A stretch of 64,000 nucleotides of DNA. Origin: an uncultured virus (IMG/VR IMGVR_UViG_3300025723_000028) (taxonomy: Duplodnaviria; Heunggongvirae; Uroviricota; Caudoviricetes). The DNA lies in the IMG/VR virus record IMGVR_UViG_3300025723_000028; one strand, 5' to 3'. A program made the translations under genes and the position numbers. Shown in pieces: positions 5,994 to 61,300 of this stretch. How positions within the stretch are numbered: the stretch's first letter is position 1; the number at the start of each line of letters is the position of its first letter. The notes under the pieces are model-generated. The model had not been told where the DNA came from. It made no database searches and saw nothing but the letters and a program-made list of their open reading frames with translations.

Positions 5994-6063
5994 GCCCCAG
6001 CCTGGGTTGCAAACTGGATTTGAGGCCAGATGTAGACGGGTTCGATTTCCGTTAGGGGCACTA
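5994..6063 (+). pseudogene. degenerate tRNA-like element
   Basis: GCCCC/GGGGC acceptor-like stem and T-arm; irregular D and anticodon arms; ends ACTA. Confidence 0.45.
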
Positions 6064-6071
6064 AGTTTTAA

Positions 6072-6103
6072 GGGTCAGTAGTTCAATTGGCAGAATAGCG
6101 GTT
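6072..6103 (+). pseudogene. 5' half of a tRNA (Trp-like)
   Basis: GGGTCAG TA GTTC AATTGGCA GAAT resembles tRNA-Trp at 9242; stops before the anticodon. Confidence 0.55.
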
Positions 6104-6117
6104 TTGTATAAATAAAG

Positions 6118-6163
6118 TATAAACTACTTAATCTATAAAACTACCAATTTACTAAAACGAAAG
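6118..6163 (+). pseudogene. relic N-terminus of a GIY-YIG (Seg-like) endonuclease
   Basis: Translates as NYLIYKTTNLL, resembling the YxIYKTTNLINGK start of Seg-like enzymes; no ATG. Confidence 0.5.
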
Positions 6164-6171
6164 AAAAAAAT

Positions 6172-6246
6172 GTCTCGATAGTGTAATTGGCAACACTTTG
6201 GTCTCCAAAACCAACATTCTAGGTTCGAGTCCTAGTCGGGACGCCA
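6172..6246 (+). tRNA. tRNA-Trp(CCA)
   Basis: Full cloverleaf, TTGGT-CTCCAAA-ACCAA. Confidence 0.9.
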
Positions 6247-6382
6247 TATATTGCCTCGTAGTAAAGGCGGCGACGATAGCAACGATAATCTAACATTAGT
6301 TTGTCCGAACTGTCATCGTTTAGCACACGAGGGAAAGATTACAGAATTTGTTTCATTGACTACACAAATAGGCGATGAATGA
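6245..6382 (+). pseudogene. relic C-terminus of an HNH endonuclease
   Basis: HILPRSKGGDDSNDNLTLVCPNCHRLAH HNH core without a start codon. Confidence 0.75.
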
Positions 6383-6577: not shown

Positions 6578-6701
6578 GTGTAGATTCTGGAATTGGCAAA
6601 CAGCTGGACGAGCAGTTCAGCCAATGGGTTCGAGTCCCATGGAAGACCGCAAGTCTTTTAGTATGGTACTGTTGGAGGTTCGAATCCTTCTCTACGCACC
6701 A
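6578..6701 (+). ncRNA. extended tRNA-like RNA with two T-arms and no clear anticodon
   Basis: GTGTAGA/TCTACGC ACCA, D-arm, internal ATGGG-TTCGAGT-CCCAT plus terminal T-arm. Confidence 0.6.
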
Positions 6702-7419: not shown

Positions 7420-7514
7420 AGTAGCGAGCATTGGTATGCGGCTGTGTTTTATAAACACGGGAGACTGGTCAGATGGGCTGGAACGATAGAGTTCGAATCT
7501 CTACGCTACTACCA
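7420..7514 (+). tRNA. atypical tRNA with TAT anticodon (Ile) and long variable arm
   Basis: AGTAGCG/CGCTACT ACCA; TGTGT-TTTATAA-ACACG. Confidence 0.6.
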
Positions 7515-8412: not shown

Positions 8413-8447
8413 ACCTTTGTAGTTAAATGGTATAACAGCCGCTTGAT
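8413..8447 (+). pseudogene. 5' half of disrupted tRNA-Ile(GAT)
   Basis: ACCTTTG acceptor strand, D-arm, ends at CTTGAT anticodon; partner half at 9192-9219. Confidence 0.75.
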
Positions 8448-8477
8448 CTGACTAAATAATCTCATAGGAGATATTTA

Positions 8478-9122
8478 ATGAAAAGAAATACGACTACTTG
8501 TTCAAAATGTAATAGTGAAGTATCATTATCAAACTATACAAAGCATTTTTTAAGTAAAAAATGTTTGTCTGGTGGTAAACAAATTGCTAACTCATCATTA
8601 TCGTGTATTTATTGTAATGCCGTATTCTTACGTTCTTCTGGACGAGGAGTTCACGAAGTTCAATGTGAATTTAATCCGCAAAGAAGAATTCTAAATCTAG
8701 GGAAAGTTGCATGGAATCTTGGTAATAGAAATACACCTGATATGAGAAACCCAGAGTTTATGGGAAAACGGGGTGGATATCGCCCCAACTCCGGAAGAAG
8801 TAAAAAATTTAGAGTATTAGATTCATTCGGAAAAGAAACTGTGTTACAGAGTACTTACGAATTAAGATGTAGTGAAATATTGAAGGAACTTCAAATAAAA
8901 TGGCTTAGACCAAAAGCACTAAAGTATGACAATAGAAACTATTTTGCTGATTTTTATTTACCAGATTATGATATCTGGTTAGATCCTAAAAATAGTTACA
9001 AAGCAAAACAAGACGAAGAGAAAATAGCAAAAGTAATAGAACAAAATAAAATTAAGTTATACATTCTTTTAGACGAACATCTGACTAAAGATTACATTGC
9101 CCGATTAGCTCAGTTGGTTTAG
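8478..9122 (+). CDS. putative homing endonuclease (Zn fingers plus PD-(D/E)XK-like domain)
   Basis: CxxC/H motifs; QSTYE...YFADFYLPDYDIWLDPK; stop codon lies inside the following tRNA. Confidence 0.7.
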   Translation: MKRNTTTCSKCNSEVSLSNYTKHFLSKKCLSGGKQIANSSLSCIYCNAVFLRSSGRGVHEVQCEFNPQRRILNLGKVAWNLGNRNTPDMRNPEFMGKRGGYRPNSGRSKKFRVLDSFGKETVLQSTYELRCSEILKELQIKWLRPKALKYDNRNYFADFYLPDYDIWLDPKNSYKAKQDEEKIAKVIEQNKIKLYILLDEHLTKDYIARLAQLV

Positions 9123-9177
9123 TAGCGCCATCTTGATAAGGTGGAGGTCCCTGGTTCAAGCCCAGGATCGGGTACCA
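9099..9177 (+). tRNA. tRNA-Ile(GAT)
   Basis: CCAT-CTTGATAA-GGTGG region with GAT anticodon; GCCCGAT/ATCGGGT ACCA. Confidence 0.85.
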
Positions 9178-9191
9178 AAATATATACCATT

Positions 9192-9219
9192 ACAAGTTCA
9201 ATTCTTGTCGAAGGTACCA
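9192..9219 (+). pseudogene. 3' half of disrupted tRNA-Ile
   Basis: ACAAG-TTCAATT-CTTGT T-arm, then CGAAGGT ACCA which pairs with ACCTTTG at 8413. Confidence 0.75.
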
Positions 9220-9241: not shown

Positions 9242-9316
9242 GGGTCAATAGTGTAATTGGCAACACCGCAGTCTCCAAAACTGCTATTCTAGATTCGAGT
9301 TCTAGTTGGCCCGCCA
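9242..9316 (+). tRNA. tRNA-Trp(CCA), second copy
   Basis: GCAGT-CTCCAAA-ACTGC. Confidence 0.85.
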
Positions 9317-9336
9317 AATTAACCTGAGAGGTCGCA

Positions 9337-9807
9337 ATGAAGTTCAACATACCACAAATTAAAGAGTTTATAGACAGTCAAGGTCCCAACACTAAAATTT
9401 ATATTGGTGTGGATTCGGAACGAGTTAAAAAAGGTACACAATGGTTTGCTGACTATACAGCGGCTATCGTTGTTCACTTAGATGGAAAACATGGTTGCAA
9501 ACTGTTTGGCGAGGTAACTCGTGAAAGAGATTATGATCGAGTTGACAAACCAAATACACGCTTAATGACTGAAGTATTCAAAGTGTCGGAATTATATTTA
9601 AAATTATCTGAAGTATTAGAAGGACGTGAAGTTGAAGTTCATCTTGATCTTAATCCAGATGATGAGTTCAAAAGTTCTAATGTGGTAGCGCAAGCTATTG
9701 GATATATACGAGGTACTTGTAACGTTGAACCACGTGTTAAGCCTTTCGGGTTTGCTGCATCGTATGCTGCCGACAGATTCAGAAGTTTGAAGGCGGTTAA
9801 CGAGTAA
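9337..9807 (+). CDS. RNase H-like YkuK/DUF458 family protein
   Basis: IYIGVDS...EVHLDLN...AASYAADR. Confidence 0.7.
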   Translation: MKFNIPQIKEFIDSQGPNTKIYIGVDSERVKKGTQWFADYTAAIVVHLDGKHGCKLFGEVTRERDYDRVDKPNTRLMTEVFKVSELYLKLSEVLEGREVEVHLDLNPDDEFKSSNVVAQAIGYIRGTCNVEPRVKPFGFAASYAADRFRSLKAVNE

Positions 9808-10034
9808 TGTCACAGGATAATTTAATTTATTCTGGACCAATGTTTAGGGCGATGGCCTGGGGAAGAATGTTTGCTGTATTACCTCATCGCTGCATTAGAA
9901 GCCGCAAGATAATATGGTTTAAATATGCTAGATCAGGTTACCTTATAACTGGTCTAGGACAAGGCGATTCAGTATGGGTGTGGATGACTGAACAAGAGTA
10001 CTTAATACATTGTTTAAAGGCTGGCGATGAGTAA
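9807..10034 (+). CDS. hypothetical protein
   Basis: ORF coupled to its neighbours by overlapping stop/start. Confidence 0.55.
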   Translation: MSQDNLIYSGPMFRAMAWGRMFAVLPHRCIRSRKIIWFKYARSGYLITGLGQGDSVWVWMTEQEYLIHCLKAGDE

Positions 10035-10488
10035 TAGCGCAAAAGGACGTAAAAGTTATGACAGTACTATGGGTAATACCATAGTACCGTTCTTCAATCG
10101 CAATGTAACACCTTATCCAACAGAAGCAGGTGGTCCAAAGTTTGAGTTAATTCCTGTTACTAAACAAAAAGACATTATGATTAATAATGCTCGATTGTTT
10201 GCACAACAAGAGTATGATCGTATTATGGAATTGGTTTCGGTATTAGAACGACAAGCTGCTGATATTAAACGCAGATTGGATATGACTGATTTAATACATA
10301 GTTGTGTATATGATTTTCAATTGACTATGGGTCAGACCTACTGGGTAATAAAAGATACACGCAAAGATACAGTAATATTATCAGGAATGTCACCCACAGA
10401 TTGGACCAGTGGTATTCCAGTAGATTATGAATACTTAATAAAGGTACGTTACATGGGTGATCACTCATGGATGGAATTAAATGAATAA
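10027..10488 (+). CDS. hypothetical protein (DUF2452-like)
   Basis: PYPTEAGGPKF...QQEYDRIMEL...LSPxDW-like pattern. Confidence 0.55.
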   Translation: MSNSAKGRKSYDSTMGNTIVPFFNRNVTPYPTEAGGPKFELIPVTKQKDIMINNARLFAQQEYDRIMELVSVLERQAADIKRRLDMTDLIHSCVYDFQLTMGQTYWVIKDTRKDTVILSGMSPTDWTSGIPVDYEYLIKVRYMGDHSWMELNE

Positions 10489-10489
10489 T

Positions 10490-10520
10490 GCCCCGGTGGT
10501 GTAATGGTAGCCACGTTAAT
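10490..10520 (+). pseudogene. 5' half of disrupted tRNA-Leu
   Basis: GCCCCGG TGGTGTAATGGTAGCCACG; acceptor partner CTGGGGC ACCA at 11122-11132. Confidence 0.7.
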
Positions 10521-10565
10521 TTGTTTTTCAACACGTTTAGCATAAATAAATGCGGAGGCAAAAAT

Positions 10566-11024
10566 ATGTTATTAATTGAAAATTATATTACACAATCTAA
10601 AGAACAAAGGCAACGGCACATAGATTTAACTGATCCATGTATAGAACGAGGTGGTCCACAAAAAGGTGGATTATCAAGTTATTGTAAAGGACTAATGGCA
10701 CATTTATTAGATACTACTATTCCAAGTGGTCATAAAATACATGTGTGCCATGCCTGCAACAATGAAAAATGTAGTAACCCAAAGCATTTGTATTGGGGAA
10801 CTGCACAAGAGAATAGATTAGATCAAGGTCATAATACTTCTCCGTGGGACAGAATGGTTGAGAAATATGGTTACGAAGAAGCCTGCAGGATGAACGCTAA
10901 AGGCAAGAAAGGTAACACCAACGGTTCTGGAAACAAGGATAAGCCTAAGACTGAAGATCAAAAGAAAAAAATCTCCGAGAGCATTAAGTTGCACTGGGAG
11001 AAAAGAAAAGGGCTCGTGGCGTAA
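10566..11024 (+). CDS. HNH homing endonuclease with NUMOD3-like tail
   Basis: VCHACNNEKCSNPKHLYWGTAQEN; KPKTEDQKKKISES; stop codon inside tRNA-Leu. Confidence 0.85.
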   Translation: MLLIENYITQSKEQRQRHIDLTDPCIERGGPQKGGLSSYCKGLMAHLLDTTIPSGHKIHVCHACNNEKCSNPKHLYWGTAQENRLDQGHNTSPWDRMVEKYGYEEACRMNAKGKKGNTNGSGNKDKPKTEDQKKKISESIKLHWEKRKGLVA

Positions 11025-11092
11025 TTGGTAGCCGCACTGGATTTAGGTTCCAGCGAGAAATCGTGAGAGTTCGAGTCTCTCCGAGCCCACCA
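11010..11092 (+). tRNA. tRNA-Leu(TAG)
   Basis: CTGGA-TTTAGGT-TCCAG, variable arm, ACCA. Confidence 0.9.
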
Positions 11093-11097
11093 AACTT

Positions 11098-11132
11098 GCC
11101 CCGATAGAGTTCGAGTCTCTCCTGGGGCACCA
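11098..11132 (+). pseudogene. 3' half / minihelix of disrupted tRNA-Leu
   Basis: AGAG-TTCGAGT-CTCT C CTGGGGC ACCA. Confidence 0.7.
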
Positions 11133-11139
11133 AAACAAA

Positions 11140-11685
11140 ATGATAAACATATTAGAAATCAATGATTTAAGTAATACTAAAATAGTTGACTTGTTAAAGT
11201 TTTCGTTTGAAGAAATTAATGATGACAAAATTATTAAAAATTATCATCCTGATTTCCACAATGAACCTGGAAATATATTTTATATACTTGACCAAGGTAG
11301 ATATCGTAAGGGTTTCGGGAAATATTTTGTGGTTACAATTGATAACAAATATGCATGTAGTGCCGGATGGAATGAATATGAACTTAATAATAATGTAGCA
11401 TTACTATTAACTCGTATGTATGTTGCACCTCAATATCGAAGAAAATATATAATCGGTAATAACATATTACCGCAGTGTATAGCCGAAGCTGATAATTATA
11501 AACATCTGTGGATTACAGCCAATGACTATAATAAATCTATATACACATATTTTGAAAGATCATCACAAAATAAAAGAACAACTTTATTTGATGATTGGCC
11601 AGATATCTACCGTAAATTTACTCCTATAGGTAAAAAAACTGTATACTATACAGAACAGTGGGTAGCTGAGTATAATAAAATTTAA
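11140..11685 (+). CDS. GNAT-like acyltransferase
   Basis: ACSAGW...LLTRMYVAPQYRRK acyl-CoA-binding-like motif. Confidence 0.55.
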   Translation: MINILEINDLSNTKIVDLLKFSFEEINDDKIIKNYHPDFHNEPGNIFYILDQGRYRKGFGKYFVVTIDNKYACSAGWNEYELNNNVALLLTRMYVAPQYRRKYIIGNNILPQCIAEADNYKHLWITANDYNKSIYTYFERSSQNKRTTLFDDWPDIYRKFTPIGKKTVYYTEQWVAEYNKI

Positions 11686-11731
11686 TTCATTGCTACGTAA
11701 TAGTAAATATGTCCATACACTTAAGGTTATT

Positions 11732-11953
11732 ATGACAGAAAAAGAAAAAATTGAATTCTTAGAGAAATCTATGGCAAAGTTATTTAACATAACATTCAAA
11801 CTTAATATGGGAGACAATCTATACGATCTTGGTATTGATTCTCTTGATATTGTTGAATTGCAATTAAATTACGAAGAAACTTTTAATGTTGAACTACCAC
11901 ACACTGATGAGCCAATTGTATATGTATCAGACATTATTAAGTTAATGGTGTAA
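11732..11953 (+). CDS. acyl carrier protein
   Basis: DLGIDSLDIVEL phosphopantetheine-site motif; small and acidic. Confidence 0.85.
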   Translation: MTEKEKIEFLEKSMAKLFNITFKLNMGDNLYDLGIDSLDIVELQLNYEETFNVELPHTDEPIVYVSDIIKLMV

Positions 11954-12885
11954 TGTTCAATTTTACACACAACAATCATTTAAAGTATACCGTCGGCAAT
12001 CGACTATACGGGTTTCGAGAGACACCTTATGAAAAATTTGTTGTTTCATGTGGGACAATTGACCATGACTATTACAAATCTAGCTCGTGGTTACAAGAAC
12101 AATATCGTACTGCTGAATTGGTATATAAAGATTTCGGATCAGATTTTGCGGTTATGTTTAGTGGCGGAACCGACAGTGAAATAGTTATTAGAGCCTTTAA
12201 ACATATAGGTATTACCCCAAGATCCGTTTTTATTAAATTTAAAAATGACTATAATATCAATGATTTAATAGTGGCAACAGAGATTGCCAAGCAATTAGAT
12301 ATTAATCTTGAAATTATTGAATTTGATGTTAAAGACTTTTATCATAGCGGCGCAGCATTTGACTTAGCAGAATCTATACAGTGTCGTCAAATTGCATACT
12401 TGACCGTTTATCATCATATTAATAAATTACAATGTCCTTCTGTCATGGGCGGGGAAATGTTATTACGTCGACATGTAGATACCACCGGCGGGCGTTGGTA
12501 TTATTGCTTTCGAGAAAACGAAGATGCTTCTGCCATGCGATTCAGTAATAAATATAGAATTCCATTAGTCAATGAATGGTTTAGTTATACACCAGAAATG
12601 ATGGCATATTACTTAGAACATCCTGGAATACAACATCTTATTAATACTAGATTTAATTATAAATTATCCAGCGTTAGTAGCAAAAATCAAATTTTAATGC
12701 AGTTAATGCCAGGTATCGTTGACAAACACAAAACACATGGATACGAACAATTGTTAGGATTCAATGGTGAAACTTACAATATGTTATACAAAAGTCATAT
12801 CAAGAGATTAGAATCTAGTTTAGATGGTATATTTGTAGACAAGCTAACAACAATCTTATTTGGAGATGATAATGTCAGTAATTAA
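11953..12885 (+). CDS. PP-loop (adenine nucleotide alpha-hydrolase-like) protein
   Basis: VMFSGGTDSE. Confidence 0.7.
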   Translation: MFNFTHNNHLKYTVGNRLYGFRETPYEKFVVSCGTIDHDYYKSSSWLQEQYRTAELVYKDFGSDFAVMFSGGTDSEIVIRAFKHIGITPRSVFIKFKNDYNINDLIVATEIAKQLDINLEIIEFDVKDFYHSGAAFDLAESIQCRQIAYLTVYHHINKLQCPSVMGGEMLLRRHVDTTGGRWYYCFRENEDASAMRFSNKYRIPLVNEWFSYTPEMMAYYLEHPGIQHLINTRFNYKLSSVSSKNQILMQLMPGIVDKHKTHGYEQLLGFNGETYNMLYKSHIKRLESSLDGIFVDKLTTILFGDDNVSN

Positions 12886-19463: not shown

Positions 19464-19538
19464 GCGTTTGAAGCTAAACGGACAAGCAAGAGCCTCTAAA
19501 ACTCCGAATAGTGGGTTCAACTCCCACCAAGCGCACCA
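19464..19538 (+). tRNA. tRNA with CTA anticodon (amber suppressor candidate, Arg-like body)
   Basis: GCGTTTG/CAAGCGC ACCA; AGAGC-CTCTAAA-ACTCC; T-arm GTGGG-TTCAACT-CCCAC. Confidence 0.7.
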
Positions 19539-22399: not shown

Positions 22400-22598
22400 G
22401 ATGATCGTGCCAACACTGAATCCACGAAACCCGTTCGTGATGCTGGCACATAAAAGAAGTGCGGGAAGTCACGCTAAGCCACACAAGGCTCAGCGCAAGT
22501 TAGATAAGCAGAGGGGGTATAGCTCAATAGCAGAGCATCCGGCTTTTAACCGGTCGACCACGGAGCGTTACCGTGTGCCCCTACCATTATTATATTAA
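22386..22598 (+). CDS. small basic protein whose frame runs through tRNA-Lys
   Basis: AAGGAG RBS; RNPFVMLAHKRSAGSH. Confidence 0.5.
   Translation: MMKSKMIVPTLNPRNPFVMLAHKRSAGSHAKPHKAQRKLDKQRGYSSIAEHPAFNRSTTERYRVPLPLLY
22513..22586 (+). tRNA. tRNA-Lys(TTT), atypical D- and T-loops
   Basis: CCGG-CTTTTAA-CCGG; T-loop AGCGTTA; D-loop lacks GG. Confidence 0.75.
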
Positions 22599-24638: not shown

Positions 24639-25835
24639 ATGTACCCAATAGACAACGTAAAAATGTGGTCCGGCGATATGGAAGTCGAACAGGCTGCTAT
24701 GGATCAACTGCGTAATATCAGTGCTTTGCCAATTTTAGCAGGTCATGTGGCAGTTATGCCCGATGTCCATATGGGCAAAGGTGCCACCGTGGGATCAGTT
24801 ATCCCAACCCGCAGTGCAATTATTCCTGCCGCAGTTGGTGTGGATATTGGGTGTGGAATGTGTGCGGCTATGACTAATCTAACCGCATCTGATTTGCCAG
24901 ATAGCCTAGTCAGCTTGCGTAATCAAATTGAACGTGACGTACCTGTGGGGTTTAACGAACACAAGCAGGGTATTCCCAGTGTAACAGGTCCATATGCTGA
25001 TGTATTGCGTAAGAACTTACGCAATACCATGGATCGTTTTGAACATTTAGCCCTAGTGCCACATTTGAACCGTGCTGACTTTAACAAGATTGGACGGCAA
25101 GTTGGTACTCTTGGTGGCGGAAATCACTTTATCGAGCTGTGTTTAGATAGCGAAGATCGAGTGTGGATCATGTTACATAGCGGCAGTCGTGGTATTGGTA
25201 ATCAAATTGGTTCTGTTGCTATCGAATTAGCTAAGGAGCAAGCATTGAAGCGAGATTACAGTCTTGCTGATCGAGACTTGGCTTGGCTTGACGAAGGAAC
25301 CGCAGAGTTTGATGCTTACATTGAAGCTATGTTATGGGCGCAAGATTATGCACGTTTTAACCGTGATACTATGATGAATTTAGTTACCTCACTGATGCTA
25401 CGTCGATTTCCACAAATGAAAATTGTAGGAGAAGTTGTTAATTGTCATCATAACTTTACCTCCATCGAAGAACATTTCGGTGAAAAAATGTGGGTCACAC
25501 GTAAAGGTGCAGTGTCAGCGCAAGCAGGACAAATGGGAATTATTCCTGGATCAATGGGTGCTAAATCATTCATTGTACAAGGAAAAGGCAATGCCGATTC
25601 TTACTGTTCGTGCTCACATGGTGCTGGGCGTAAACACAGCCGTAATGGTGCAAAACGTCTATTTTCATTAGATGATCTAGCATCGCAGACTGCTGGTGTT
25701 GAGTGCCGCAAAGACTCAGGTGTACTGGACGAAATTCCAGGTGCTTATAAGAACATAGACGACGTTATGAGTGCTCAAAGAGACCTTGTTGAGATCGTTC
25801 ATACGCTAAAACAAGTATTATGTGTCAAAGGTTAA
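24639..25835 (+). CDS. rtcB: RNA 2',3'-cyclic phosphate/5'-OH ligase RtcB
   Basis: VMPDVHMGKG, VGVDIGCG, GTLGGGNHFIE, HSGSRG, SHGAGR, DEIPGAYK. Confidence 0.95.
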   Translation: MYPIDNVKMWSGDMEVEQAAMDQLRNISALPILAGHVAVMPDVHMGKGATVGSVIPTRSAIIPAAVGVDIGCGMCAAMTNLTASDLPDSLVSLRNQIERDVPVGFNEHKQGIPSVTGPYADVLRKNLRNTMDRFEHLALVPHLNRADFNKIGRQVGTLGGGNHFIELCLDSEDRVWIMLHSGSRGIGNQIGSVAIELAKEQALKRDYSLADRDLAWLDEGTAEFDAYIEAMLWAQDYARFNRDTMMNLVTSLMLRRFPQMKIVGEVVNCHHNFTSIEEHFGEKMWVTRKGAVSAQAGQMGIIPGSMGAKSFIVQGKGNADSYCSCSHGAGRKHSRNGAKRLFSLDDLASQTAGVECRKDSGVLDEIPGAYKNIDDVMSAQRDLVEIVHTLKQVLCVKG

Positions 25836-33392: not shown

Positions 33393-34679
33393 ATGGCAAC
33401 CTCCGGTACAACTACCAACAAAAAAGAAAGCGACAAATTAAAAAATCTGTTAGGACCTACAGATCCTAAACTTGATTCTATTGTACGCGAAAAACTTATT
33501 ACTGCTCGTGTGGGGCTTTTGCTTCGTGCTAGCTTTTTCGGTAACTTGGCAACACGCCTTAAGTTAGTAAATGCAGACGAATGGCTTACTACTGCTGCAA
33601 CTGATGGACGTCATTTTTATTACAATAGTCGTTTTATTGATATGTTGCGTCCTAAGGAAATCGAATTCTTGTTCGGACATGAAGTATTGCATTGTGTTTA
33701 TGACCATATGGGTCGACGTGTTGATCGAGATCCACAACTGTGGAACATCGCTGATGACTATTGTGTAAATTCCGATTTGATCAAACATCGCATTGGTGAA
33801 AAGATCACTACTGTGCCATGCTTGTATGACTCGAAATACGACGGCATGAGTGCTGAACAAGTGTATGATATTTTGTACGAAAACGCTGAAAAAATTAACA
33901 TCCAACAATTGATTGATCAATTGCTTGATGATCACTTGGACGGTGAAGGTGACGACGAGGGTGACGGCGAAGAAGTTGACGGCAGTGGCAAAGGCAAAGG
34001 TCGTCCTAAACTAAGCCAAGCTGAAAAAGATGCTATTCGCGATGAAATTAAAGAAGCTGTGCTAGCAGCCGCATCCGCATCCGACAATGCTGGAAATATT
34101 CCAGCAGGTGTTAAACGTCTTATTGAAAATATGACACAGCCTAAGATGAATTGGCGTGAATTGCTACGTATGCAACTTGAGTCTACTATCAAATCAGACT
34201 TTACTTGGATGCGTACTAGCCGTAAAGGTTGGGATATGGATGCAGTCATGCCTGGCATGAAATTAGATCCTATGATTGATATTGCAATTAGCATTGACGC
34301 ATCTGGTTCTATTAGTCATAAAATGCTTAATGACTTTTTAAGTGAAGTGCAAGGTATTATGGATTCTTTCCCAGCGTATAAAATTCATATTGTGACTTTT
34401 GACACTTGTACTTACAATCCACAACAGTACAATAGTGATAATTTAGATACTATTTGTGATTACGAAATTGTAGGCGGCGGCGGAACTGATTTTGACTGCG
34501 TATTTGAATATTTCAAACGTGAAGAAATTGAACCTAAACGTCACATTATGTTTACCGATGGTTACCCTTGTGGTAGTTGGGGTGACGAAAATTATTGCGA
34601 TACTGTGTTTATTATTCACGGTAACGACAGTATTATTCCTCCGTTCGGACAACATGCGTATTACAATGAGAATGCATAA
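33393..34679 (+). CDS. VWA-like domain / HExxH metallopeptidase (MoxR partner)
   Basis: TAATDG, HEVLH, IDASGS (MIDAS), GGGGTDF, FTDGY. Confidence 0.85.
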   Translation: MATSGTTTNKKESDKLKNLLGPTDPKLDSIVREKLITARVGLLLRASFFGNLATRLKLVNADEWLTTAATDGRHFYYNSRFIDMLRPKEIEFLFGHEVLHCVYDHMGRRVDRDPQLWNIADDYCVNSDLIKHRIGEKITTVPCLYDSKYDGMSAEQVYDILYENAEKINIQQLIDQLLDDHLDGEGDDEGDGEEVDGSGKGKGRPKLSQAEKDAIRDEIKEAVLAAASASDNAGNIPAGVKRLIENMTQPKMNWRELLRMQLESTIKSDFTWMRTSRKGWDMDAVMPGMKLDPMIDIAISIDASGSISHKMLNDFLSEVQGIMDSFPAYKIHIVTFDTCTYNPQQYNSDNLDTICDYEIVGGGGTDFDCVFEYFKREEIEPKRHIMFTDGYPCGSWGDENYCDTVFIIHGNDSIIPPFGQHAYYNENA

Positions 34680-49332: not shown

Positions 49333-52300
49333 TTAATTAACTCCCCTTAAAAAGAGCGCCGATGAAGTTGTAGTATCTTGCAATGGGGTGCCATTCGATG
49401 CTGTTTGTGGGCTCGTACCTTGAGCATACCATGTTACGCCACGACGTACTAAAATAGTTACTTCTTCTCCGACAGCTGGGGCAGTTATAAATGTCACTGA
49501 AACTGGTGTTTCATTAGTTATAGTGTACCCAGTGGTTTGCAATATACCACCGAGATATACTTCTACTTGTCTATTTAAAGATTGCCAATAAGTTGTATTA
49601 GTAATAGCAGTATTATTAGGAACCGTAATAATCGCACGGTAGTAAAATCCATTATCAACTACTACTGTGCCTTCTGTATAACTATTTGCTGCTACCCATG
49701 TGATTGCATCGGTAAATGCTAATGAAATATCTACTGCTTCAAATACTGTAGTTACTCCATTTCCTATCATTCTATCACTAACGATATAGTTTTGAGATGC
49801 AGCAGGCAGTAAATTGCTTCTACCCATGTCATAAACAGTCGACCCTATTGTATGCGATGCCGCTGCGGTGCCAGCTGTGCCACGTAATAAACTACTGACC
49901 GTATTAGCTACCATATCAATTTCACGATACATAATGCGTTCGCCATTTATAGTTATAATTCCCCATGTATTGGTAGAAAAATTAGGAATTGTTAATGCAC
50001 TAGCATTAGCTACATGTATAATATCATCAGTTTGTGCTAAATTTTGAGTCAATAATGTAGTAGAGTCTATGGTCATACGATAAGTTGCTTGAACCCCGCG
50101 CATATCCTGGAATATTCTAAATTCCATAGCTTCAGGTACCACTGAACAAGTAACATTCGTCACTACCACAACATCAGTTGTCTGTATTGTGCCACTATTT
50201 AAACTCAATACATTTCCATTAATTGTATAATCAATATTTGGAGATAATACTTTTCCATTTTTAGAAACCCATGGGCGTGAAATATCTGTATAAGATTGAT
50301 ATAATACAAAATTATTGATGTAAATTGTTTCTCCTACGGTAGCATCAAATTCACCTGGTAATGATGATGCAGCGCCAGGCGGATTATCGAAGTCTGTTGT
50401 ATCAAACGCTTCATAAACTGATATTCCTTCACTATCTGGCCCGACAAAAATTTGCGTTGACAGTCTTTGTTCTCGTGTATCATTAAATGATGTAATCGAA
50501 ATAATTTGACCAACTTGCGGAACGAGTCCTTTGCCTGTTATAAAGGTTAAAGTATGTGCTATAGGATCAATTATATACTGCGCTGTCGCATTTACTGCAA
50601 TATAAATTTGTGCATTATCTGCAGGTGTGTTAGTCAGTATTACAAATACAGTATCAATATTTGGATCAAACGGTACAGTTGAATAATAATCTGCTTTCAT
50701 ATTTCCACTAAATCCAGTATATATCGATATGTCATATAATGCAGGATCTAATAATATACCGTCAACATAAACACTTACCATAGATTTAGTTATTGCTGCT
50801 GAATTGATTCCTATTCTCGATGGTAATGGGAATCCAGTATTTCCATTTTGTACTATGTAGCTGGCCCCAGCAGAACCTTGTGCAACAACCCCGCCCACTG
50901 TTACAATTGCAACCACTGGATTAGTATATTCTAAACTAAATGCTGGATCCAGATCAAATACAGTTTGTCCTGGTGTTGCTACACTAAAACTCTGAGTCAC
51001 AGGTAAACTCCAACTGTAATTTGTAGTTACATTTTGAATTGTAGTAGGTTGAATTACTACTAAACTTATAAAATCAGTTGAATTATATACATTAGTAAAT
51101 GTTACTTGTGTCGAGGACAATGAATAAGGAGCGTAGGAATAATTTGAATTAGCCAAATATACGCCATTAACAAAAATAACAAATTCTTGTATTGCTGGTG
51201 TAATACCATCATTTTGGTAGTATGCTACAGGAACTATCAATGAATTTCCTACTTGACTGCCATTATAAGTATTTTTATATACTTGATTGCCGCCACCCAA
51301 TTCATACACATAAATTGCAATTTGATCACCTTGTGCAACCAAAATAGATGTATTTAAAATTGTAACTGTTTGGACAGTCCAATCTATTGTATAATCAACT
51401 CCTAGAGTTAAATCATACCCTTGAGTTACATCAGTAACTTCCACGATAAATGGATATGGTAATGCACCTGCAAAACTAATAGTTGCATTGCTGCTTTCAT
51501 AAATGAATTGTATTACTGCTTGCGGAAAGCTGTGTCCTAACCCTTGCCAATCAGCCCCAGGAGTCGTATAAACTCGCATGTCTAATGTATCAAATTCAAT
51601 TCCTGGCACTAATTCTTCTGGTGCATGACTTTCGTATACATCTACATACTTACCACCATCGATATTGATATCAGTAGGGCGTGTTCCAAGGTACGGATCT
51701 AAATAACTGCTTGCAAAAATTGTGTCCAATACCCCTATGTCATATGTTGGTAATCCATTTGCATCATAAGATATGTTATCAAAAGGATTAATATCAAAAT
51801 TATCTCGGGCATATCCAGTGTCTTGGCTGAAATTTAATCCAGAAACTTGTACTCCAGGATAGTCAACACCATCTATAAGCAATGGTAAAGATAATCCAGG
51901 AGAATTTACGGTGCTGACATAATAGCCCATAGTACGGTTAACACCGCTTAATTCACTGGCTGAAACCATTGTCCATTGCGACGGGTCAAATACTGAATTA
52001 GATTCCGTATTATTAGAGCTCCAAACTATATTGTCGTATCGTACCTGAGTCCCAGTTTCATAAGTTATATTTGATTCCCAGTCAACGATTGTTGATTCAT
52101 ATTCATAGCGATCATATTTTAATGTAAGATTAAATGTACGAGATAATGTATGTCCAGACGGATTGCCCATTATTACACTGGCCTGAGCTGGTTGACCAAC
52201 AAACAATAATGATGCTGTACCGTTAATTTGATCGTTGTGTCCAATTGGAGCAACATTTCCTAATATTCCTGCTTCGGCAACTTCAAATATATTGCCGTTC

Positions 52301-55300
52301 GGAGCAATAATATAACTATTCGAAACTACTGCCAACCCTGCACTCCATTCAATAGTAACTCCAGGTAATCCACCACCTGTGATATTTATAAATGCATCTG
52401 TAATATAGCCACTACCTGGATTAGTTATTGTAATCGAAATAATATTTCCAGTCGTATTAATTATACTGGTTCCAGTAGCAGGGTATCCAGCATACATTAA
52501 CGTAGCACTACCATCAATCGCTGAACCAGACATGAATGTAGGAGGAGTAGACCCTGATGTACCCGGAACTGTAATGGTATATAAGTTATTTGCATAATAT
52601 ACTTGTTGTCCAATACTATAAGCGGTGTTTGGATACCACATCGTACCGAATGTTATAATAGGAGCATTTCTATATCCTGTTCCTGCATTAGTAATATTGA
52701 CACCTTGCACGTTCAACAGATAATTATTAAACCATTGACTATATAAACTTGGATATTGCCAAATTTGTGCATTAGGCGCAGTATTGCTTACTAAAGAATT
52801 ATGAGGGGTTATAGCTTGATTGTACGGAGTCAATATAGGGCTTACAAATTGTGGACTTTTCAGCAATGAATTCCAATATGCAGGTAAGTCAAAATCAGTT
52901 AAATCTCCTAAGAAATTATCCTCTCCGCTATAAGTTAAATTAAACTGTCGCACCTGAACATGATAAGGTTTAACTTCTTGGAAATAATTTACTACAAAAT
53001 CTTGATTATCTGAAAGATAAGTTTGATAAGGTAATAATGAACGAATCTTATGATTGACATCGACATAACTTGTTTTAATTAACCAAGATGGATCAGTAAA
53101 CTCACTGTATACAAAATTAAACATTAATATTAAACTACTATTACGTTCAATTAGTAAATCTTCAATATAGATTTCCTCATTCAACGCACGTATAATATAA
53201 CGGGTTTCAATCTGTGCAGTTTCATCAAAATATTGTGAATCATAAGTTTGTGCATCAAACCCAAAATCAGCAACTGCGTAATTCCATAATTCTTCTTTAA
53301 AGGCTATAGTGCCATCTTCTAACCCGACACGTTGCCAGTCACTGACAGGATTAACACCTGTACGTAAATAAATTTCCCATTTGCCCGAACCATTAGAAAT
53401 AACACGCACAGACGACCCTACTGGTGCTGTTGTATAACTTAATGTTGCCAATTGCCCATAATTTTGAACCGCAGCAACTGGTGCAATAGTCGAATTATAT
53501 CCTGGTAAATACCAATTGACATAATACCAATATAATGGAGTATCATAACTTTGTACTTGTGTTAACAACAATGTTCGAGTAGCACTAACCGTATAAATTG
53601 TCCATCGGCCGTTTTCGGTACTATCATTTAATACAAGATACTTGTATCCAACTGGAACTACATACAGATCTTGATAGCCTAAAACTTCTAAGTTAGGTAC
53701 TTCAAAATTCCATGCTCCAGATCCAGCAGAAGGAATCGGATCTGCTGCATTCAATAAATTAAAACTACGTGTTTCGGAAATAGGATACTGCAATAAAACT
53801 GAATTTGCTCTACCTAAATAATTTTCTAATGCAGTAAATCTATCTGCAAACATTGACTGTCTGGGACGGAACTGTACACCAAAACGCATACCTGGACTTA
53901 AAGTTGGATCTGGTACTGCATTACCTGCTGTATCAATACCACATAAACTATCTATAAACTTTCGATATAACTGAGTATTAAGGAATGATTTTGCAATGCC
54001 ATCTGTAACTATTTGATATTCTTGATGTACTACAGAATCTGTTAATTTTCTTGAAAAACTAACATTCAATATAGTATTAGTAGCATTTAACAAACGCTGT
54101 GCATTATAAATCGCAATCGTTGATGCATTTAATCCAGCAATGAAAGGTAATCCACTGCTACGAGGATCAAAAATATAGCTGGCAACTCCTGCTGCACTTA
54201 ATGTTTTTCCGGAACCTGAAGCAATTGTTGTAATTCCCTTGACCCAAAAATAATAAATTGTTGTAAAAATATTATTTGATCCCAATGATGTTGCTACACA
54301 ATAACTAGTAGGACTCAATGGTGTGCCTGATCCAGTGTAGTTAGATGGTGGGGTAGTACTTGATATCCATTGGTAAACATCAATACTACTGCCTGGGAAA
54401 GTCGTACCCCAACGACGACTAGCATATACTATGTCATCTTGACTAGGATCGATGAATCTTACTGTATCAGTATCCCACCACATTTCACCGATGTGTTCTG
54501 CGCCCCAGAATTGACCATTATTATGAACTGTACCCTGATTATATTGTGCTGGGTCAACTGATCCAATATAATCAATGTTACTACGAGCAATTCCAAGTAT
54601 TTTACCTTGTAATGGATCAAAGAAGTCGAAGTATGTTTGATACGCACCATTTAACGTATCGTTAACTCCAATAGCTTGTCCACCATTGTAACTAAACACT
54701 CCATCGATCGCATGTACATCTACAACTGGTTGTTGTACACGTATAGGCGCCCATGCAGGAGTATTGTTTGGATTATTAAAAATTACTATATATCCATTAC
54801 CATTAGTAGAAGTATTTGTTCCGCCTGGAGCGCCTACCATTAATCTACCATTTGTATAATTTACTGCGGTGCCAAAGAAATTACCAGATTCAATGACATT
54901 ATTGTAAATTTGTTGCCCAAATGCAAATTGTCCAGGATTTTTGATATTATTTGTACTACTTGGGAAGAAATCATATGTATATGCCACCCCTCCGTTGTTA
55001 ATCGGATTATAAAAAGTGGTACTATTTTCATCAAAGTAAGTTTGATTAGCATCAAAAGTTGTTGGCTCGTAAACGTTTCCATTTGGTGCACCAACAATTA
55101 AATTAACTGCGCTAGAATCAATACTTAGACTTGCACCAAATTGAGCATTGAATGCTGGAGATGGGCTTAAAATTTGCTGAGTAAAGACTAAAGTATCAAA
55201 TCCCAATTGACCAAATACCGATGTTACTGTCCCAGGAAGTACTGTAATTAAATTGTTTGGTGTTCCTGCTTTGGAGTTTTTAATAGATAATGTTAATCTT

Positions 55301-58300
55301 CCAGAAACAACAATTATTTTTACACCAGGTAAAGGTGCAAATACAAAATTAATAGTTTCCGCAGAAGGATCATAGGAGTAATCTATCCCAGCAATTTGCA
55401 ACACATTATTCAAATAGACAACAGTAGTATATGAACTAGCAACCGTATATAAAGATCCAATATAAAAAACTTTAGTTGTACTATCGCCTGTAAATGTTAA
55501 ATCTGGAGTAGTTGATGCTATTACATTCGGTATAGCCATTTCATTGATTGCTTTCGCAAAACCTGCTACTGTATTGTTAGGTTGCGCTGGCACAGTTACT
55601 ATTGAATTATTAATACGCAATGTACCAGAAGGAGTTAGAACAGGATTAGCTATTGTAGATGTGGTAACCCCGTATACCCTCGATTGATTAACTTGGTGAT
55701 CAACTGACCCAGCTAAATCAATATAAGTGCTATCGTATGGTGCACCGATATAAAGACTGCAATTCAATGGACATGAATCAAGTACTAGCCCGTATTCTGC
55801 TGATTTTACTGGTGTGCTACTTGATAATTCTTGAATTTGTGTAATTTGATTAGTACCAATTTCAATTATATCTCCGTAATTAAACGTTATATTAGAAAAT
55901 ATGATATTATTTCCGCTTATACTATATTGTCCTTCGATTGACTGGCTAGTAGTTAATAAAAATGTTTCGTTGACGCTTACTGTCACAGGATTTGTAACAT
56001 TACCAGGTATTGTATATGTTAGTTGAGAAGGATTCGAAACTATATAACGAATTACGCTTCTGTCAAACATATACACTACCCCGGAATTATTTAAATTATC
56101 ACGTGTAGTATTAGGTGCTCCTACGTATATTTGTGCTCCATCCGTTGTTGTTGCAACTGATGATCCGAAATTATCTCCGGATATCGAATCTGTAGACGTA
56201 ATAGTAGTAACATATTGCCAATATGTCGGTGTTGTTACTATAATATCTGCTCCAACTGGCGGAATAGTAATAAATGTCAACTCAGTAGTTTCATTATTAA
56301 ATGTATAATCAAAATAGGGACGTTGTATTACTTTATTTACAGTCACTGCAAAAGTTTCGATAGTGGTTGCATTATACAAATATGTGTTTAATGCAAAGGT
56401 ATTAGTTTGATTTATACCAATACCAGTATACGTATACCCGCTTATTGCACCGCCTACTGCAATTCCAGTAACAGTTATTGTTAAATCATTGGCAGTAGTA
56501 GTTCCTCCTAATCTTGATCCAGAAATAACTAACGTATCATTAATAGCATAAGACTGTCCGCCAGTTATTAGATTTATTACATATTCGCCGCGTACATTTT
56601 GAATTGTAAAAATTGAATTATATCCAGCGCCTGAGGTTGAACTTTGTCTCAGATTGTAATAAGTCGTAGCATCTAATTGTTTACTCAAATTGCGAGTCAA
56701 CGTAAGTGTTTGTCCTGACACTGTTGGGTGAACTAATGTTACAAAATTTTGATCTACAGTATAATCTTTTCCGTAAACTAACTCAATTCCACTTAATGCA
56801 ACTGATAATTGTTCAGGATGCAAGTAATTAATCTGTATTGCGTTTGAATATTCGTAACTAGTTACACTATAGTTTGTAGTATATGTAATAGTTTGATTTA
56901 CTACATCTATTTTTTCATAGGCATAAACTGAATTAGCTGCCGGTGCTCCGATATACATCCATTTTTCGTCTGCACTAATTACTCCCGATGTTCCAAATTT
57001 AATAGGATTAAAATTTTGTGTCGGCGGAACTAATAATTGAGTAATAGTGAAGGAATTTACATCTGAATTTCTATAAATTACTACAGCATAGCCCATGTTT
57101 GATGCACTGGTATTAGCTCCTGCTATAGCCCAATTAGAACTACCAAAGGATACCATATTACCAAAATTACTTGAATCAATAGTTTCCAGTATTAATGTGC
57201 TGTTAAATTGATAGTCAGTAAAATTTCCTCTAATATAAGTCAGTATAGAATTGGCTCCAGGTGCACCTACCATAGCGCCAAAGTTAGATGCTGATTGTGT
57301 TATACTTACACCATATCGATCACTAGGAGTAAATCCCGTGGAAATAACAGAATCGGTAATAAATGGAGTTTGTTTTTGTACAGTTTCCCAATGTCCACTG
57401 CCGTTATTATCTATCCAAGCAATCGAACCCGGTACTAAATTATTAACATAAGGTAAGTTTGAAATGTCACTAGCTTGTGATACTCGAGCACTTTGTAAAT
57501 GAAAGACTAACCCAGTACCTGTTATATTAGTTACATTTGTGTTTACGAAACTAAAGGCGATAATAACGGTAGTTGGAGTTGGTGCTGCTAAAACACGATA
57601 AACCCCGTTAACCCCATTATTAAAATATTTAATAATAATTAAATCATATAATGATAACCCATGTGCCGCGTTAAATTGTACAACACTAGTACCATTGAGA
57701 TTATCAGTTAACCGTATCATTTGCCCTGGCACACTGGCTACACGATATACACCCCAGTCATGCGTGTTGGTTTTAGCAATCCAGATATAAGTGCCAATTC
57801 CAATATTGTTGATATCAGCTTCAATTGCCGCAGGATCTTCAATACTGAATACCGTAACATCAACATCATCTAAACATACATAACCTGCAGACGGTAATGC
57901 ATCTGGCAAACTACCTGATTCATATATAGTAGGAAGAATGTTAATATTATTAATAGAATAACTTTCTTTCCATAAATTGCTCAAATAAACCTGCTGATTA
58001 GCTTGACTTACATCGCCTGGGTTTGTAATTTGTATAGTTGACGGATTGTAAGATAATAGAGCTTCGTTTAATTGAATTTCAAAGTAACTCTTATTAGCAT
58101 TTGCCCCGTACACTCCGGATAATATGCCCCAGTTTTCATAGATATTATAATCGCCGCTTTCTTTGCCGTTAAGTTTTGCTAAGTTGAATATTTCAGCAGC
58201 TTGTAATGTACCTTTGGTACCAATAAATTGTTGATATAACTGAACTTGTGTTACACCATTAAGATTCATGTCTGTCATATATGGACGAGGACGGAATCCA

Positions 58301-61300
58301 ATCAATCCAAATGCAAATAAATCGTTATCACTGGTTAAATTAGCTTGGTATACATCGTATGAGCTTACTAATTGATCTGCTTTATTAGCCAAGTTAGGCA
58401 ATAATCCAGTGTCAATTGCTTGATAATCACTTTTTATCCACTCACTATAATTAAAGGTTTCTTGTGGCTCACTAATAACCAATGCTTGCCAGTAGGTATT
58501 TTTGTATAATACCATATCTCCCTTGGTATATTTTTGATAAGATTGCCATTGCTTTACATTGTTTAAGTTAAGAATAAATCCTTGTGCATTTAATTGCCCA
58601 TCCCATTCAGTTGTCGTAGATGCGATTAAACTTAAACGAACTTGTCTTGCGGCTGTAATTGGATCATATATCAAATCTCTAAATTGTGTAGTATTATCTA
58701 GCACAATCATATCTTCGTAATTTGTGAATTTCAATGTAAGATAATTGATAGTTTGTCCGTTTGTAGATGTAATCGAAAATTGATTACCATCACGATTAAC
58801 TATCATTGAGCTAACATCCAACACAGTACGATTTTGATCCAGTAACATATTTTCCGGAGTTATGCTGGCAATAGTATCTACAATACTGATAGGTTGACTT
58901 GCTTTAATTGTAGTGGCAGCTGGATTTAGATTAATCATTGTACCTGCTTGCCACCCTTGTTCTCCAAAGTATAAAAACTCTTGAGACATCTGTAACCAAT
59001 TTAATGTGTACCCATTGTATGTATTATCAAATATTAATCCTTGAGATGTTAGCCATGCTCCATAACTCATTAAGAAATCGCAGACACTAGATGGACTGGT
59101 AAAAACATATCCATACGGAATTTGTTTTATATTATTTGTATATTGTGATGGAACTTGAACTGTGGTATTACCAGCGGTAATAGTCTGGTATAACCCTACT
59201 GGACTACTTTCTAATATTTCAAAATAAGGTTGTACATTGCTATAACCATAAACACTATATCCTATTCCACCTGAGCCTAAACGTTCTACTTGTACAATAA
59301 CAGAACTATATGTAATTTGATCAAATGGTTGATTTTTATAAAAAATCAAACTATAACTGCTTGGGGGAATTTGTAAACTATTATTCGTAGAACTTGGTCC
59401 GGCTCTTTCAGTAGATATTTGAACATACGCAGAATCACTGAATGAAGCCATACGGTAGCATAGACGCACATCTAAGTTTGCTAATTCGTTAGTCAATGCC
59501 GTAGTACTATTAACTCCTGTTTGTTGATTATAGTCAACAATCCAATTGATATAACTTGCTTTGCTTACACCATTACCATATACTTGTACACCTGAAGCAT
59601 TTAAACGGTAGCGACTATTTAACAAGTATTGACCTAGTGCATTATTGTATCGATATAAATCTCTATCAGCAAATAATGAGAAAAATTGTGCTGGTTTTGT
59701 CAGTGCTAATAATCGCATAATAGCAAATGGATACGAACTACTATTCCACCAAGATGCCTGAACTGGACCACCGTCACCAGATACCCATGATTGTTGGAAC
59801 CCATACGGATCATTACGACCCATTACGCATTCAGACGGAGGCAGAAGATAACCTTCTGAACTAGCAGGAATAATTTTTGATAAACCAGGTCTTATATATT
59901 CAGGAAGAACATATGGACCAACAGGATCTGCAACAATACCAGCTTCTAAATCATCCCAAAGTACTGTATTTCCTGATGTATATGGACCTGGACCATAACG
60001 TGTCGCCCACCATGCAGGTTCTTCAGAAAATCCAACCATTTCCCAAGGTGTAGTATTTGGGGTTTCAGTATCATAAAAATAACGATATATGCCTCTCCAG
60101 TTACCCTGTAAGAATTGTGTTTGGTCGATACGATTAGCGGCTTGGCTATAGTTATAAGTAAACGGATTGTCTGTAATATAATTTTGTTGAGTATAATCTA
60201 CACGATTTTGCCCAACCCATGTTAAGAAATCCTCGCTCATTATTTGATTCACTTCCGAATATGTGTAAGGCGTTTTTCGAAAGAATCCAGGTAATAAAGC
60301 AGTAGTTTGCGCTGGGTAAAAAGTAGGATCTACTTGATCTGATGTCAATGGAATTGGATTATCATCGACTTTAATGTTATCATAAATTCGCTTTTCAAAT
60401 TCAAGTAATACTTGATCTCGAATATCACCAAAAGCAATAGTAGTTGATCCGTCGTGTCCTTGAATTACTACAGTAGGCTCTGAGTACGTATCGTCAATAT
60501 AAATTGACGGAGTAAATTTAGGATATAACCCCATTTTACTAGGTGTATTTGGACACCAGCTGGCCACAGTAGTTGGATATTCGTTAATAGTAACCACATC
60601 GCCAACATGTAGTGGTACTAAAATTGTTAATTTCTGTGCATCAACTGACACAGTATATTGACTATTGCGCAATAATAATATATCATTGACATATACCAAT
60701 AACCCAAGATAATTACTTGACGTAAAGTTATACATTTGACTTGTGTTAAAAGTCGCTGATGTAATTGGATTAACTACCGTTGTCGTCGATGTATAATTTG
60801 TGCCAATCGGAAGCATATCTGACCAATAAAACGAATTTGACTTTGTCAAACTTTTTGTTATATTACTGATTCCCAGATCAAGTACTTGCGATACCGTTTC
60901 ATTTCCAGTAAGATTTAATTGTGTTACTGCGGTTAGCAATTTATTTTTATACTTGATGTATTCTCTGCTGTTATAATCTAAAGCAGCAAATAAATCGTAA
61001 TTAATGTTACGTAGGAAAAATCCAGCTAATGTTAATGGCGAAGATTGTTGTAATATTAACTGACCATAAGGAATAATATTTCCCAAATCTCGTGTATTAT
61101 TACGTCCATTTATTGGCCCAGCTAGATTAACTAAATTTTCACAAATAGTAGTATAATGTTGTCGAACTGTACCAAGACTAAATTTTGCACTATTACCATT
61201 AAACGGATTATTTTCTAAATTAATAGGAATTTGATAAAATGCAGTAGCACTCACTTGCTGACTATATGCCAATATTTCAACTATGTCACCAATAACCATA

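Follow-up and report, generated by a model that had tools for sequence, protein, structure and literature searches.

Why do the two ends of one tRNA-Leu gene lie on either side of a nuclease gene and a second, intact tRNA-Leu? The question is raised by a locus in a stretch of 64,000 nucleotides from an uncultured virus, here called the window, which is apparently part of a very large uncultured phage and holds 27 tRNA genes called by ARAGORN and two more found by Rfam. The first-pass annotation, which had only the sequence to go on, described a 5' tRNA half, the motif TAAATA, an HNH open reading frame (ORF), an intact tRNA-Leu(TAG) and a 3' tRNA half; each of these was found at the position claimed for it, base for base (Table 1).

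Table 1. Features of the tRNA-Leu locus and of the neighbouring tRNA-Ile case, in window coordinates
Feature	Position	Strand	Basis
tRNA-Ile(GAU) case: 5' half 8413-8447, nuclease ORF 8478-9122, intact tRNA-Ile 9099-9177, 3' half 9187-9219	8413..9219	+	Sequence match
DUF2452-like gene of 153 aa, upstream of the cassette and anchoring synteny at the empty site	10027..10488	+	ORF call; Pfam DUF2452 at 23.3 bits, slightly below the cut-off of 25
5' remnant of resident tRNA-Leu(UAG), comprising the acceptor strand and the D arm with ~3 nt of the anticodon stem	10490..10518	+	Sequence match; pairing
Cassette leader: conserved block, CATAAATA (T4-late-promoter-like), GGAGG ribosome-binding site	10519..10565	+	Sequence; conservation
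HNH / His-Me-finger nuclease gene, 152 aa; ATG at 10566, stop at 11024	10566..11024	+	ORF; PHROG; conserved motif
Intact tRNA-Leu(UAG), class II, A73, encoded CCA, 83 nt	11010..11092	+	ARAGORN; Rfam, 53.9 bits
Spacer, 5 nt	11093..11097	+	Sequence; 4-5 nt in sister cassettes
Minihelix / 3' piece: inner acceptor-like strand, T arm, 3' acceptor strand of the resident, ACCA	11098..11132	+	Fold; pairing; match to tRNA-Leu(tag)

Two pieces of one tRNA-Leu gene

The 5' piece begins 1 nt past the stop codon of the upstream gene; its acceptor strand GCCCCGG occupies 10490-10496, its D arm extends to 10514, and resemblance to a tRNA fades at about 10518. The 3' piece is made up of GCCCCG (11098-11103), a T arm (11106-11121), CTGGGGC (11122-11128) and ACCA (11129-11132). 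The orphan 5' acceptor strand pairs with the 3' strand at seven of seven positions, one G-T pair included. When the pieces were compared with 243 distinct tRNAs of related loci, the best six matches to the 5' piece were all tRNA-Leu(tag), the top one agreeing at 22 of 25 positions, as were the best ten matches to the 3' piece, for which the top match (26 of 27, 96%) covers positions 51-77 of a tRNA-Leu(tag). The pairing and the shared best match bear out the proposal that the T arm with CTGGGGC-ACCA belongs with the orphan 5' half. Positions ~30-48 of the broken gene, which we refer to as the resident, are absent from the window. An independent metagenome contig (L116; loci compared with the window are given L numbers) is identical to it from -100 to +650 nt around the HNH start, so the arrangement is not peculiar to this assembly.

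Several further features of the window were recorded. The two tRNAs missed by ARAGORN and found by Rfam lie at 19464-19535 and 22513-22583 (46.4 and 51 bits). A tRNA-like stretch with pairing ends at 5994-6062 was called by neither program, and a 20-nt tRNA-Asn fragment lies at 6669-6688. The tRNA-Ile(tat) call at 7420-7514 is 95 nt, unusually long for Ile, and L003 and L082 show the same. An RtcB-type tRNA/RNA ligase gene (24639-25835; phrog_1075, E = 1.6e-144) is located within the tRNA-rich region, and a reading frame of at least 4,888 codons on the minus strand (49333-63999) continues past the window edge.

The unbroken site in relatives

The protein encoded by the upstream gene has 528 relatives in IMG/VR, of which the best 80 were fetched and compared. 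In four of the five closest (81-85% identity), namely L001, L003, L004 and L005, an intact tRNA-Leu(tag) follows 5-9 nt downstream (9 nt in L001, 5 nt in L003), and in L001 its acceptor pair is identical to that formed by the two pieces in the window. Among the other 75 of these best 80 loci, ten have a tRNA-Leu(taa) ~100 nt downstream; in 65 no downstream tRNA was called, and these are therefore uninformative about the empty site. Cultured phages gave no match to 9300-12300 by megablast, nor to the upstream protein by tblastn.

The site is thus polymorphic for presence and absence: unbroken in L001, L003, L004 and L005, filled in the window, and filled by another nuclease in L002. The first-pass annotation had looked to the empty site to decide between one broken gene and an unrelated tandem duplication, and the single intact tRNA-Leu(tag) that follows the same upstream gene in L001 and L003 decides for the former. 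Synteny with these relatives extends over the left flank only, as to the right of the cassette the window has ~6.9 kb that is absent from L001; that the 3' piece belongs to the resident is therefore argued from two facts, that it pairs with the 5' piece and that it is recognizable as tRNA-Leu(tag). With these points in hand, sequence comparison confirms that 10490-10518 and 11106-11132 are parts of one broken tRNA-Leu gene.

The nuclease gene and its leader

The final 15 nt of the nuclease ORF, stop codon included, fall inside the following tRNA. The product matches six PHROG endonuclease/HNH families (E = 1.9e-8 to 1e-3); Pfam matches to zf-His_Me_endon (22.5 bits, cut-off 27) and HNH_3 (20.4 bits, cut-off 24.8) are both below cut-off, and the motif region matches I-PpoI weakly (E = 0.027). 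No GIY-YIG family was found among the Pfam or PHROG matches. Across 21 homologues (44-94% identity) the residues C61, H62, C64, N66, C69 and N83 are invariant. Ungapped comparisons with four relatives gave dN/dS of 0.03-0.07, with L126 and L127 left out because indels invalidate such comparisons; these values point to purifying selection on the nuclease gene. An AlphaFold model built from the 21 sequences was too poor to use (pLDDT 65.7, pTM 0.42), and a Foldseek search of the PDB with it returned no match at E<=0.001, its top rows being ankyrin repeats. A longer ORF starting from ATG 10488 was rejected, as the homologues begin at the Met at 10566 and GGAGG precedes that codon. The window also holds a second, large HNH endonuclease gene, at 33393-34679 (phrog_1314, E = 2e-107).

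Within the 47-nt leader, CATAAATA, which contains TAAATA, is located at 10541-10548 and GGAGG at 10554-10558. In 69 of 78 loci the 60 nt before the nuclease start contain TAAATA, a motif present in 5% of random 60-nt windows. Copies of the full T4-late-type octamer are fewer in the window than chance predicts (seven against 16), and most of them lie directly upstream of ORFs. This distribution fits the view that the TAAATA-type motif is a real promoter, and any timing of expression read from it would be a prediction.

A family of mobile cassettes linked to tRNA-Leu

The intact tRNA has a cloverleaf, a long variable arm, A73 and CCA according to ARAGORN, Rfam and a reading of the sequence, and its Rfam score lies well above the gathering score of 29. 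Its acceptor, D and anticodon stems all differ from those of the orphan pieces.

Relatives of the nuclease were collected from IMG/VR (32, all fetched) and from metagenomes (best 80 of 340); together with the window's own region, the 112 loci fetched in this way make a set of 113, of which 81 are distinct. We found that a tRNA-Leu starts 300-560 nt after the nuclease start in 70 of the 81 distinct loci, with anticodon tag in 47, taa in 21 and caa in two. The remaining 11 loci have another tRNA (two) or none (nine, of which four end too early). An overlap between nuclease ORF and tRNA is seen in 56 of these 70 loci; it measures 15 nt in 28 of them and 10 nt in 18. In L095, L103, L108, L109, L125, L163 and L169 the nuclease-linked 'tRNA-Leu' is only 76-77 nt long and of class I shape, with a short variable loop and a UAG or UAA anticodon.

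A tRNA-Leu 5' piece precedes the promoter-like motif in 46 of the 78 loci with enough upstream sequence. For the 43 loci in which it lies within 100 nt of the start, tRNA-likeness ends at positions 23-36, with a mode at 28. The acceptor strands of the broken residents vary by locus and are paired 7/7 by the resident's own 3' remnant in the window, L082, L083, L091 and L103. Roughly half the loci that have a 5' piece lack a 3' remnant, and L084-L088 carry the nuclease and a tRNA-Leu without any fragments.

L082, L083 and L118 have cores that are 99-100% identical and 300-nt flanks that, on either side, are at the background level of 56-61%; conversely, L082 and L091 are 96% alike in the flank and only 78% alike in the core. 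What L082 and L083 have in common starts at the end of the D arm and stops a few bases short of the T loop, and the T stems of L082 and L118 are chimeric, so that exchange took place within the tRNA gene's two most conserved boxes. Judged by these alignments, the cassette is mobile. A pattern scan for more copies of the window-type right end found L082 and L083 only, and one for the L082 site in its empty state turned up L082 and L091 only. In L082, L083, L118 and L133 an extra block of ~90 nt, which includes an anticodon-arm-like hairpin, fills exactly the place between spacer and inner acceptor-like strand; the window lacks this block.

The same layout with other nucleases

The first-pass annotation held that the tRNA-Ile case upstream has the same layout with a nuclease of a different family, suggesting convergence. 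Our results agree with this, and extend it to a third family. The Ile halves correspond to positions 1-35 and 42-74 of the intact tRNA-Ile(gat) of L002 and L003 at 100% identity, 6 nt having been lost right after the anticodon. The nuclease between them is non-HNH, matching phrog_9019 and T7-endonuclease-I/NUMOD3-like clusters; it had no match among PDB sequences and no detectable relation to the L002 nuclease (BLASTP E = 0.23). The possibility that 'TACC' before the Ile T arm is an acceptor copy was ruled out, as it consists of junction and variable-loop sequence.

In L002 (6464-7299), the tRNA-Leu(tag) site that is filled in the window has an L004-type 5' part up to the anticodon loop, followed by TAAATA and a nuclease of 238 aa with a DUF559 domain (54.2 bits), the end of whose ORF is overlapped by a different intact tRNA-Leu(tag); there is no 3' remnant at this site. 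As DUF559, too, has split the Leu site, the same layout is used by unrelated nucleases: non-HNH in the Ile case, HNH in the window's Leu case and DUF559 in that of L002.

Two further observations concern these regions. At 7343-7640 of L002, the anticodon loop of a tRNA-Leu(taa) is interrupted by ~230 nt, by its appearance a candidate group I intron. A decayed third cassette lies at 6073-6370 of the window, where the first 30 nt of a tRNA-Trp, identical to that of L003 (100%), are followed by TATAAATA at 6107-6114, an intact tRNA-Trp at 6172-6246 and a short frame with an HNH-like Cys/His motif (noted by eye).

An acceptor/T-arm minihelix behind the linked tRNA

Folded alone, the 35-nt piece at 11098-11132 forms an acceptor/T hairpin (-15.8 kcal/mol, z = -3.1; 2 of 200 shuffles were as good), and the 5' piece with the leader folds no better than shuffles (z = -0.6). 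The earlier idea that the 3' piece, preceded by GCCCCG, is a leftover able to fold by itself therefore holds as regards folding; GCCCCG, however, is not simply left over, since the inner strand travels with sister cassettes. Its presence before the T arm is not explained by a simple homing model, and it may be either a scar or a processing signal. It could have come from a duplicate of the resident whose D, anticodon and variable arms were removed by a deletion centred on the cut, or it could have arisen through selection for a self-contained hairpin such as a minimal RNase P site. A reading of GCCCCG as the 3' half of a variable arm was ruled out: the variable arms of intact tRNA-Leu genes here end otherwise, and the inner strands track the acceptors.

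It is conceivable, if doubtful, that the minihelix with its CCA is a selected RNA and no neutral scar, possibly a minimal RNase P substrate that frees the 3' end of the rescue tRNA and separates the downstream message. Behind the cassette family we found 21 orphan T-arm-plus-acceptor remnants (one of them a spurious second hit, and two identical pairs among them), and 14 of the 21 have an inner strand with at least five contiguous pairs to the 3' acceptor strand, compared with 6 of 217 intact-tRNA controls. The versions in L182 and in L117/L119 fit quite different acceptor stems, so the inner strand appears to have arisen more than once, which counts in favour of this reading. Changes in the inner strand, assessed by eye, are C-to-T or G-to-A and leave G-U or A-U pairs in place; the same pattern would, however, result from C-to-T decay of an AT-rich genome without selection. 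In most loci the inner strand begins 4-5 nt after the rescue tRNA, the spacing found between neighbouring tRNA genes, and the spacers mostly end in T. In E. coli, polycistronic tRNA transcripts are separated by RNase P, according to two reports (PMC2190699; PMC7049720). Against selection, pairing is lost after transfer to a new resident in L083 and L118, where the inner strand arrived with the cassette and is mismatched to the new 3' strand; ~90 nt separate tRNA and minihelix in L082-type cassettes; roughly every second locus with a 5' piece lacks a 3' remnant; and the events counted are non-independent. When 1.19 Mb of related DNA was scanned with strict criteria, such minihelices appeared behind this cassette only, apart from one probable chance hit, so that the minihelix is no general punctuation device.

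How the resident gene may have been broken

The explanation that we favour, at a probability of roughly 0.78, is that a mobile cassette made up of a late-type promoter, the gene of a free-standing HNH homing endonuclease and a linked, probably cut-resistant rescue tRNA has been copied into the resident tRNA-Leu(UAG). In a mixed infection, the nuclease would cut cassette-free tRNA-Leu genes near the boundary of D stem and anticodon stem, the cassette-bearing genome would serve as the repair template for the break, and crossovers would fall in the short, near-universal D-arm and T-loop boxes of the tRNA gene itself. Use of such boxes would allow the cassette to enter tRNA-Leu genes in unrelated surroundings. 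The orphan pieces would then be the outer ends of the old gene, left in place. The linked tRNA, whose D stem is different, is predicted to escape cutting, and the cost to the phage would be low because this tRNA supplies the decoding function that is lost.

A possible target is indicated by the tail of the D stem, which reads (G/T)ACAC in 31 of 41 broken residents and in one of 41 linked intact tRNAs; the linked tRNAs have compensating D-stem pairs in its place. Among 16 tRNA-Leu genes fetched independently of the nuclease, six have (G/T)ACAC. The distribution is compatible with a target that takes in the D stem's 3' strand, beside the breakpoints, with escape via D-stem swaps; we regard it as a lead, and the tally is to be read as one of non-independent events, because the part of the 5' remnant that starts at the end of the D arm moves with the cassette and the loci share ancestry.

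A more ambitious version of the favoured explanation can be put forward, and we think it improbable as a whole. It describes a natural 'cleave-and-rescue' drive that uses the universally conserved D- and T-loop boxes of its own target as portable homology arms, overwriting any susceptible tRNA-Leu in any phage. In this version the CCA-bearing minihelix would also be kept as a functional RNA: as a minimal RNase P site it would allow maturation of the rescue tRNA and set free the message downstream. As the stop codon of the nuclease lies inside the rescue tRNA, RNase P would on this proposal also strip that codon from the nuclease message, limiting the nuclease.

Alternatively, the nuclease could be a mere passenger: the block would spread because tRNA-Leu paralogues recombine in the ordinary way at their conserved boxes, and the HNH enzyme would cut something else or nothing. 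The junctions do lie in sequence common to all tRNA-Leu genes, which could allow recombination without a targeted break, and the nuclease is also found free-standing beside tRNA arrays, in L084-L087 and in Citrobacter phage Ursula. Homology of 10-20 nt is, however, a poor substrate for break-independent recombination. The near-exclusive association with tRNA-Leu (70 of 81), the narrow range of breakpoints and the strong selection on the nuclease also speak against a passenger, and linked tRNAs are depleted of the GTG/CAC D stem, as a targeting enzyme would lead one to expect; we therefore consider a passenger distinctly unlikely. Next to no credence is given to a local tandem duplication of tRNA-Leu followed by decay, with the nuclease gene between the copies by chance: the inner GCCCCG is in the window indeed a second copy of the 5' acceptor strand, but the intact tRNA differs from the pieces in three stems, the same intact tRNA and nuclease occur elsewhere with pieces of other residents, and relatives have a single intact gene at the site.

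Comparison with known systems

If targeted breakage is accepted, phage tRNA arrays are being rewritten by at least three nuclease families (HNH, DUF559 and endonuclease-I-like), each of which brings a spare tRNA and breaks and replaces a resident. Because nuclease cassettes break and replace resident tRNA genes, tRNA sequence in these phages may be shaped by immunity to selfish elements as well as by decoding. The favoured explanation predicts a tRNA-gene-specific nuclease with a directly testable target and D-stem-swap escape variants. Orphan pieces and ORF/tRNA overlaps of this kind are, in addition, traps for automatic annotation.

In the literature searched (open-access papers and bioRxiv), we found nothing that describes a cassette of nuclease and replacement tRNA splitting a tRNA gene. 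The nearest described system is SegB of phage T4, and the window cassette works like SegB without being a member of its family. T4 SegB is reported to have the conserved T-loop box of tRNAs in its recognition site and to cleave tRNA genes, and its homing into T2L takes the adjacent tRNA genes along (PMC2330249). As with SegB of T4 and T6, the nuclease gene lies among phage tRNA genes, the predicted target is inside tRNA genes and a tRNA is carried along (PMC2330249; PMC13096335). SegB, as described there, is of the GIY-YIG type, cuts the 3' end of many tRNA genes and swaps whole segments between homologous flanks, whereas the window cassette has an HNH/His-Me motif, is associated with one isoacceptor family, has an ORF that overlaps a dedicated tRNA, and leaves the old gene as two pieces. 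The F-TflI/II/IV endonucleases of the T5 tRNA region (Akulenko et al. 2004) are of HNH type and treated as mobile (PMC10644984; PMC2330249), and so resemble the window nuclease by description; the available text of these sources mentions no split-and-replace layout.

Intronless or trans homing, as reported for T4 MobE (PMC2790892) and for nuclease genes at exchange boundaries (PMC10448857), likewise involves a free-standing endonuclease, polymorphism between presence and absence, and flanks that are co-converted. The window cassette differs in that the targets in those cases are protein-coding genes and long flanking homology is needed.

Group I introns of tRNA anticodon loops, for example in tRNA-Leu(UAA), are similar in that insertion is in or near the loop; the 5' pieces of some sister cassettes extend past the anticodon as far as position 36, and the Ile break falls right after the anticodon. 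A reading of the locus as an intron was nevertheless ruled out, as Rfam found no group I intron or other ribozyme intron family in window positions 1-32000 at E<=1 and the would-be exons do not make a whole tRNA. Splicing cannot restore the old gene because its anticodon and variable arms are gone, and, unlike in tRNA introns, function would here be rescued by a second gene.

Homologues of the nuclease are also present in cultured phages. Gene 169 of the jumbo Ralstonia phage RsoM2USA, annotated as a hypothetical protein, is 52% identical over residues 1-86; as in the cassette, the end of its ORF overlaps a tRNA-Leu, here tRNA-Leu(taa), and ahead of it lie a fragment of a tRNA-Leu D arm and a motif of the TAAATA type. 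It differs in that the old acceptor strand is gone and there is no 3' remnant. In Citrobacter phage Ursula, the homologue closes the tRNA array.

In synthetic cleave-and-rescue drives, Cas9 destroys a needed gene in insects, and a linked, recoded copy that cannot be cut rescues the carriers. The logic proposed for the window cassette is the same, with the difference that the system is natural and viral and that the needed gene is a tRNA; it would thus be a natural example of the break-and-rescue logic of engineered gene drives.
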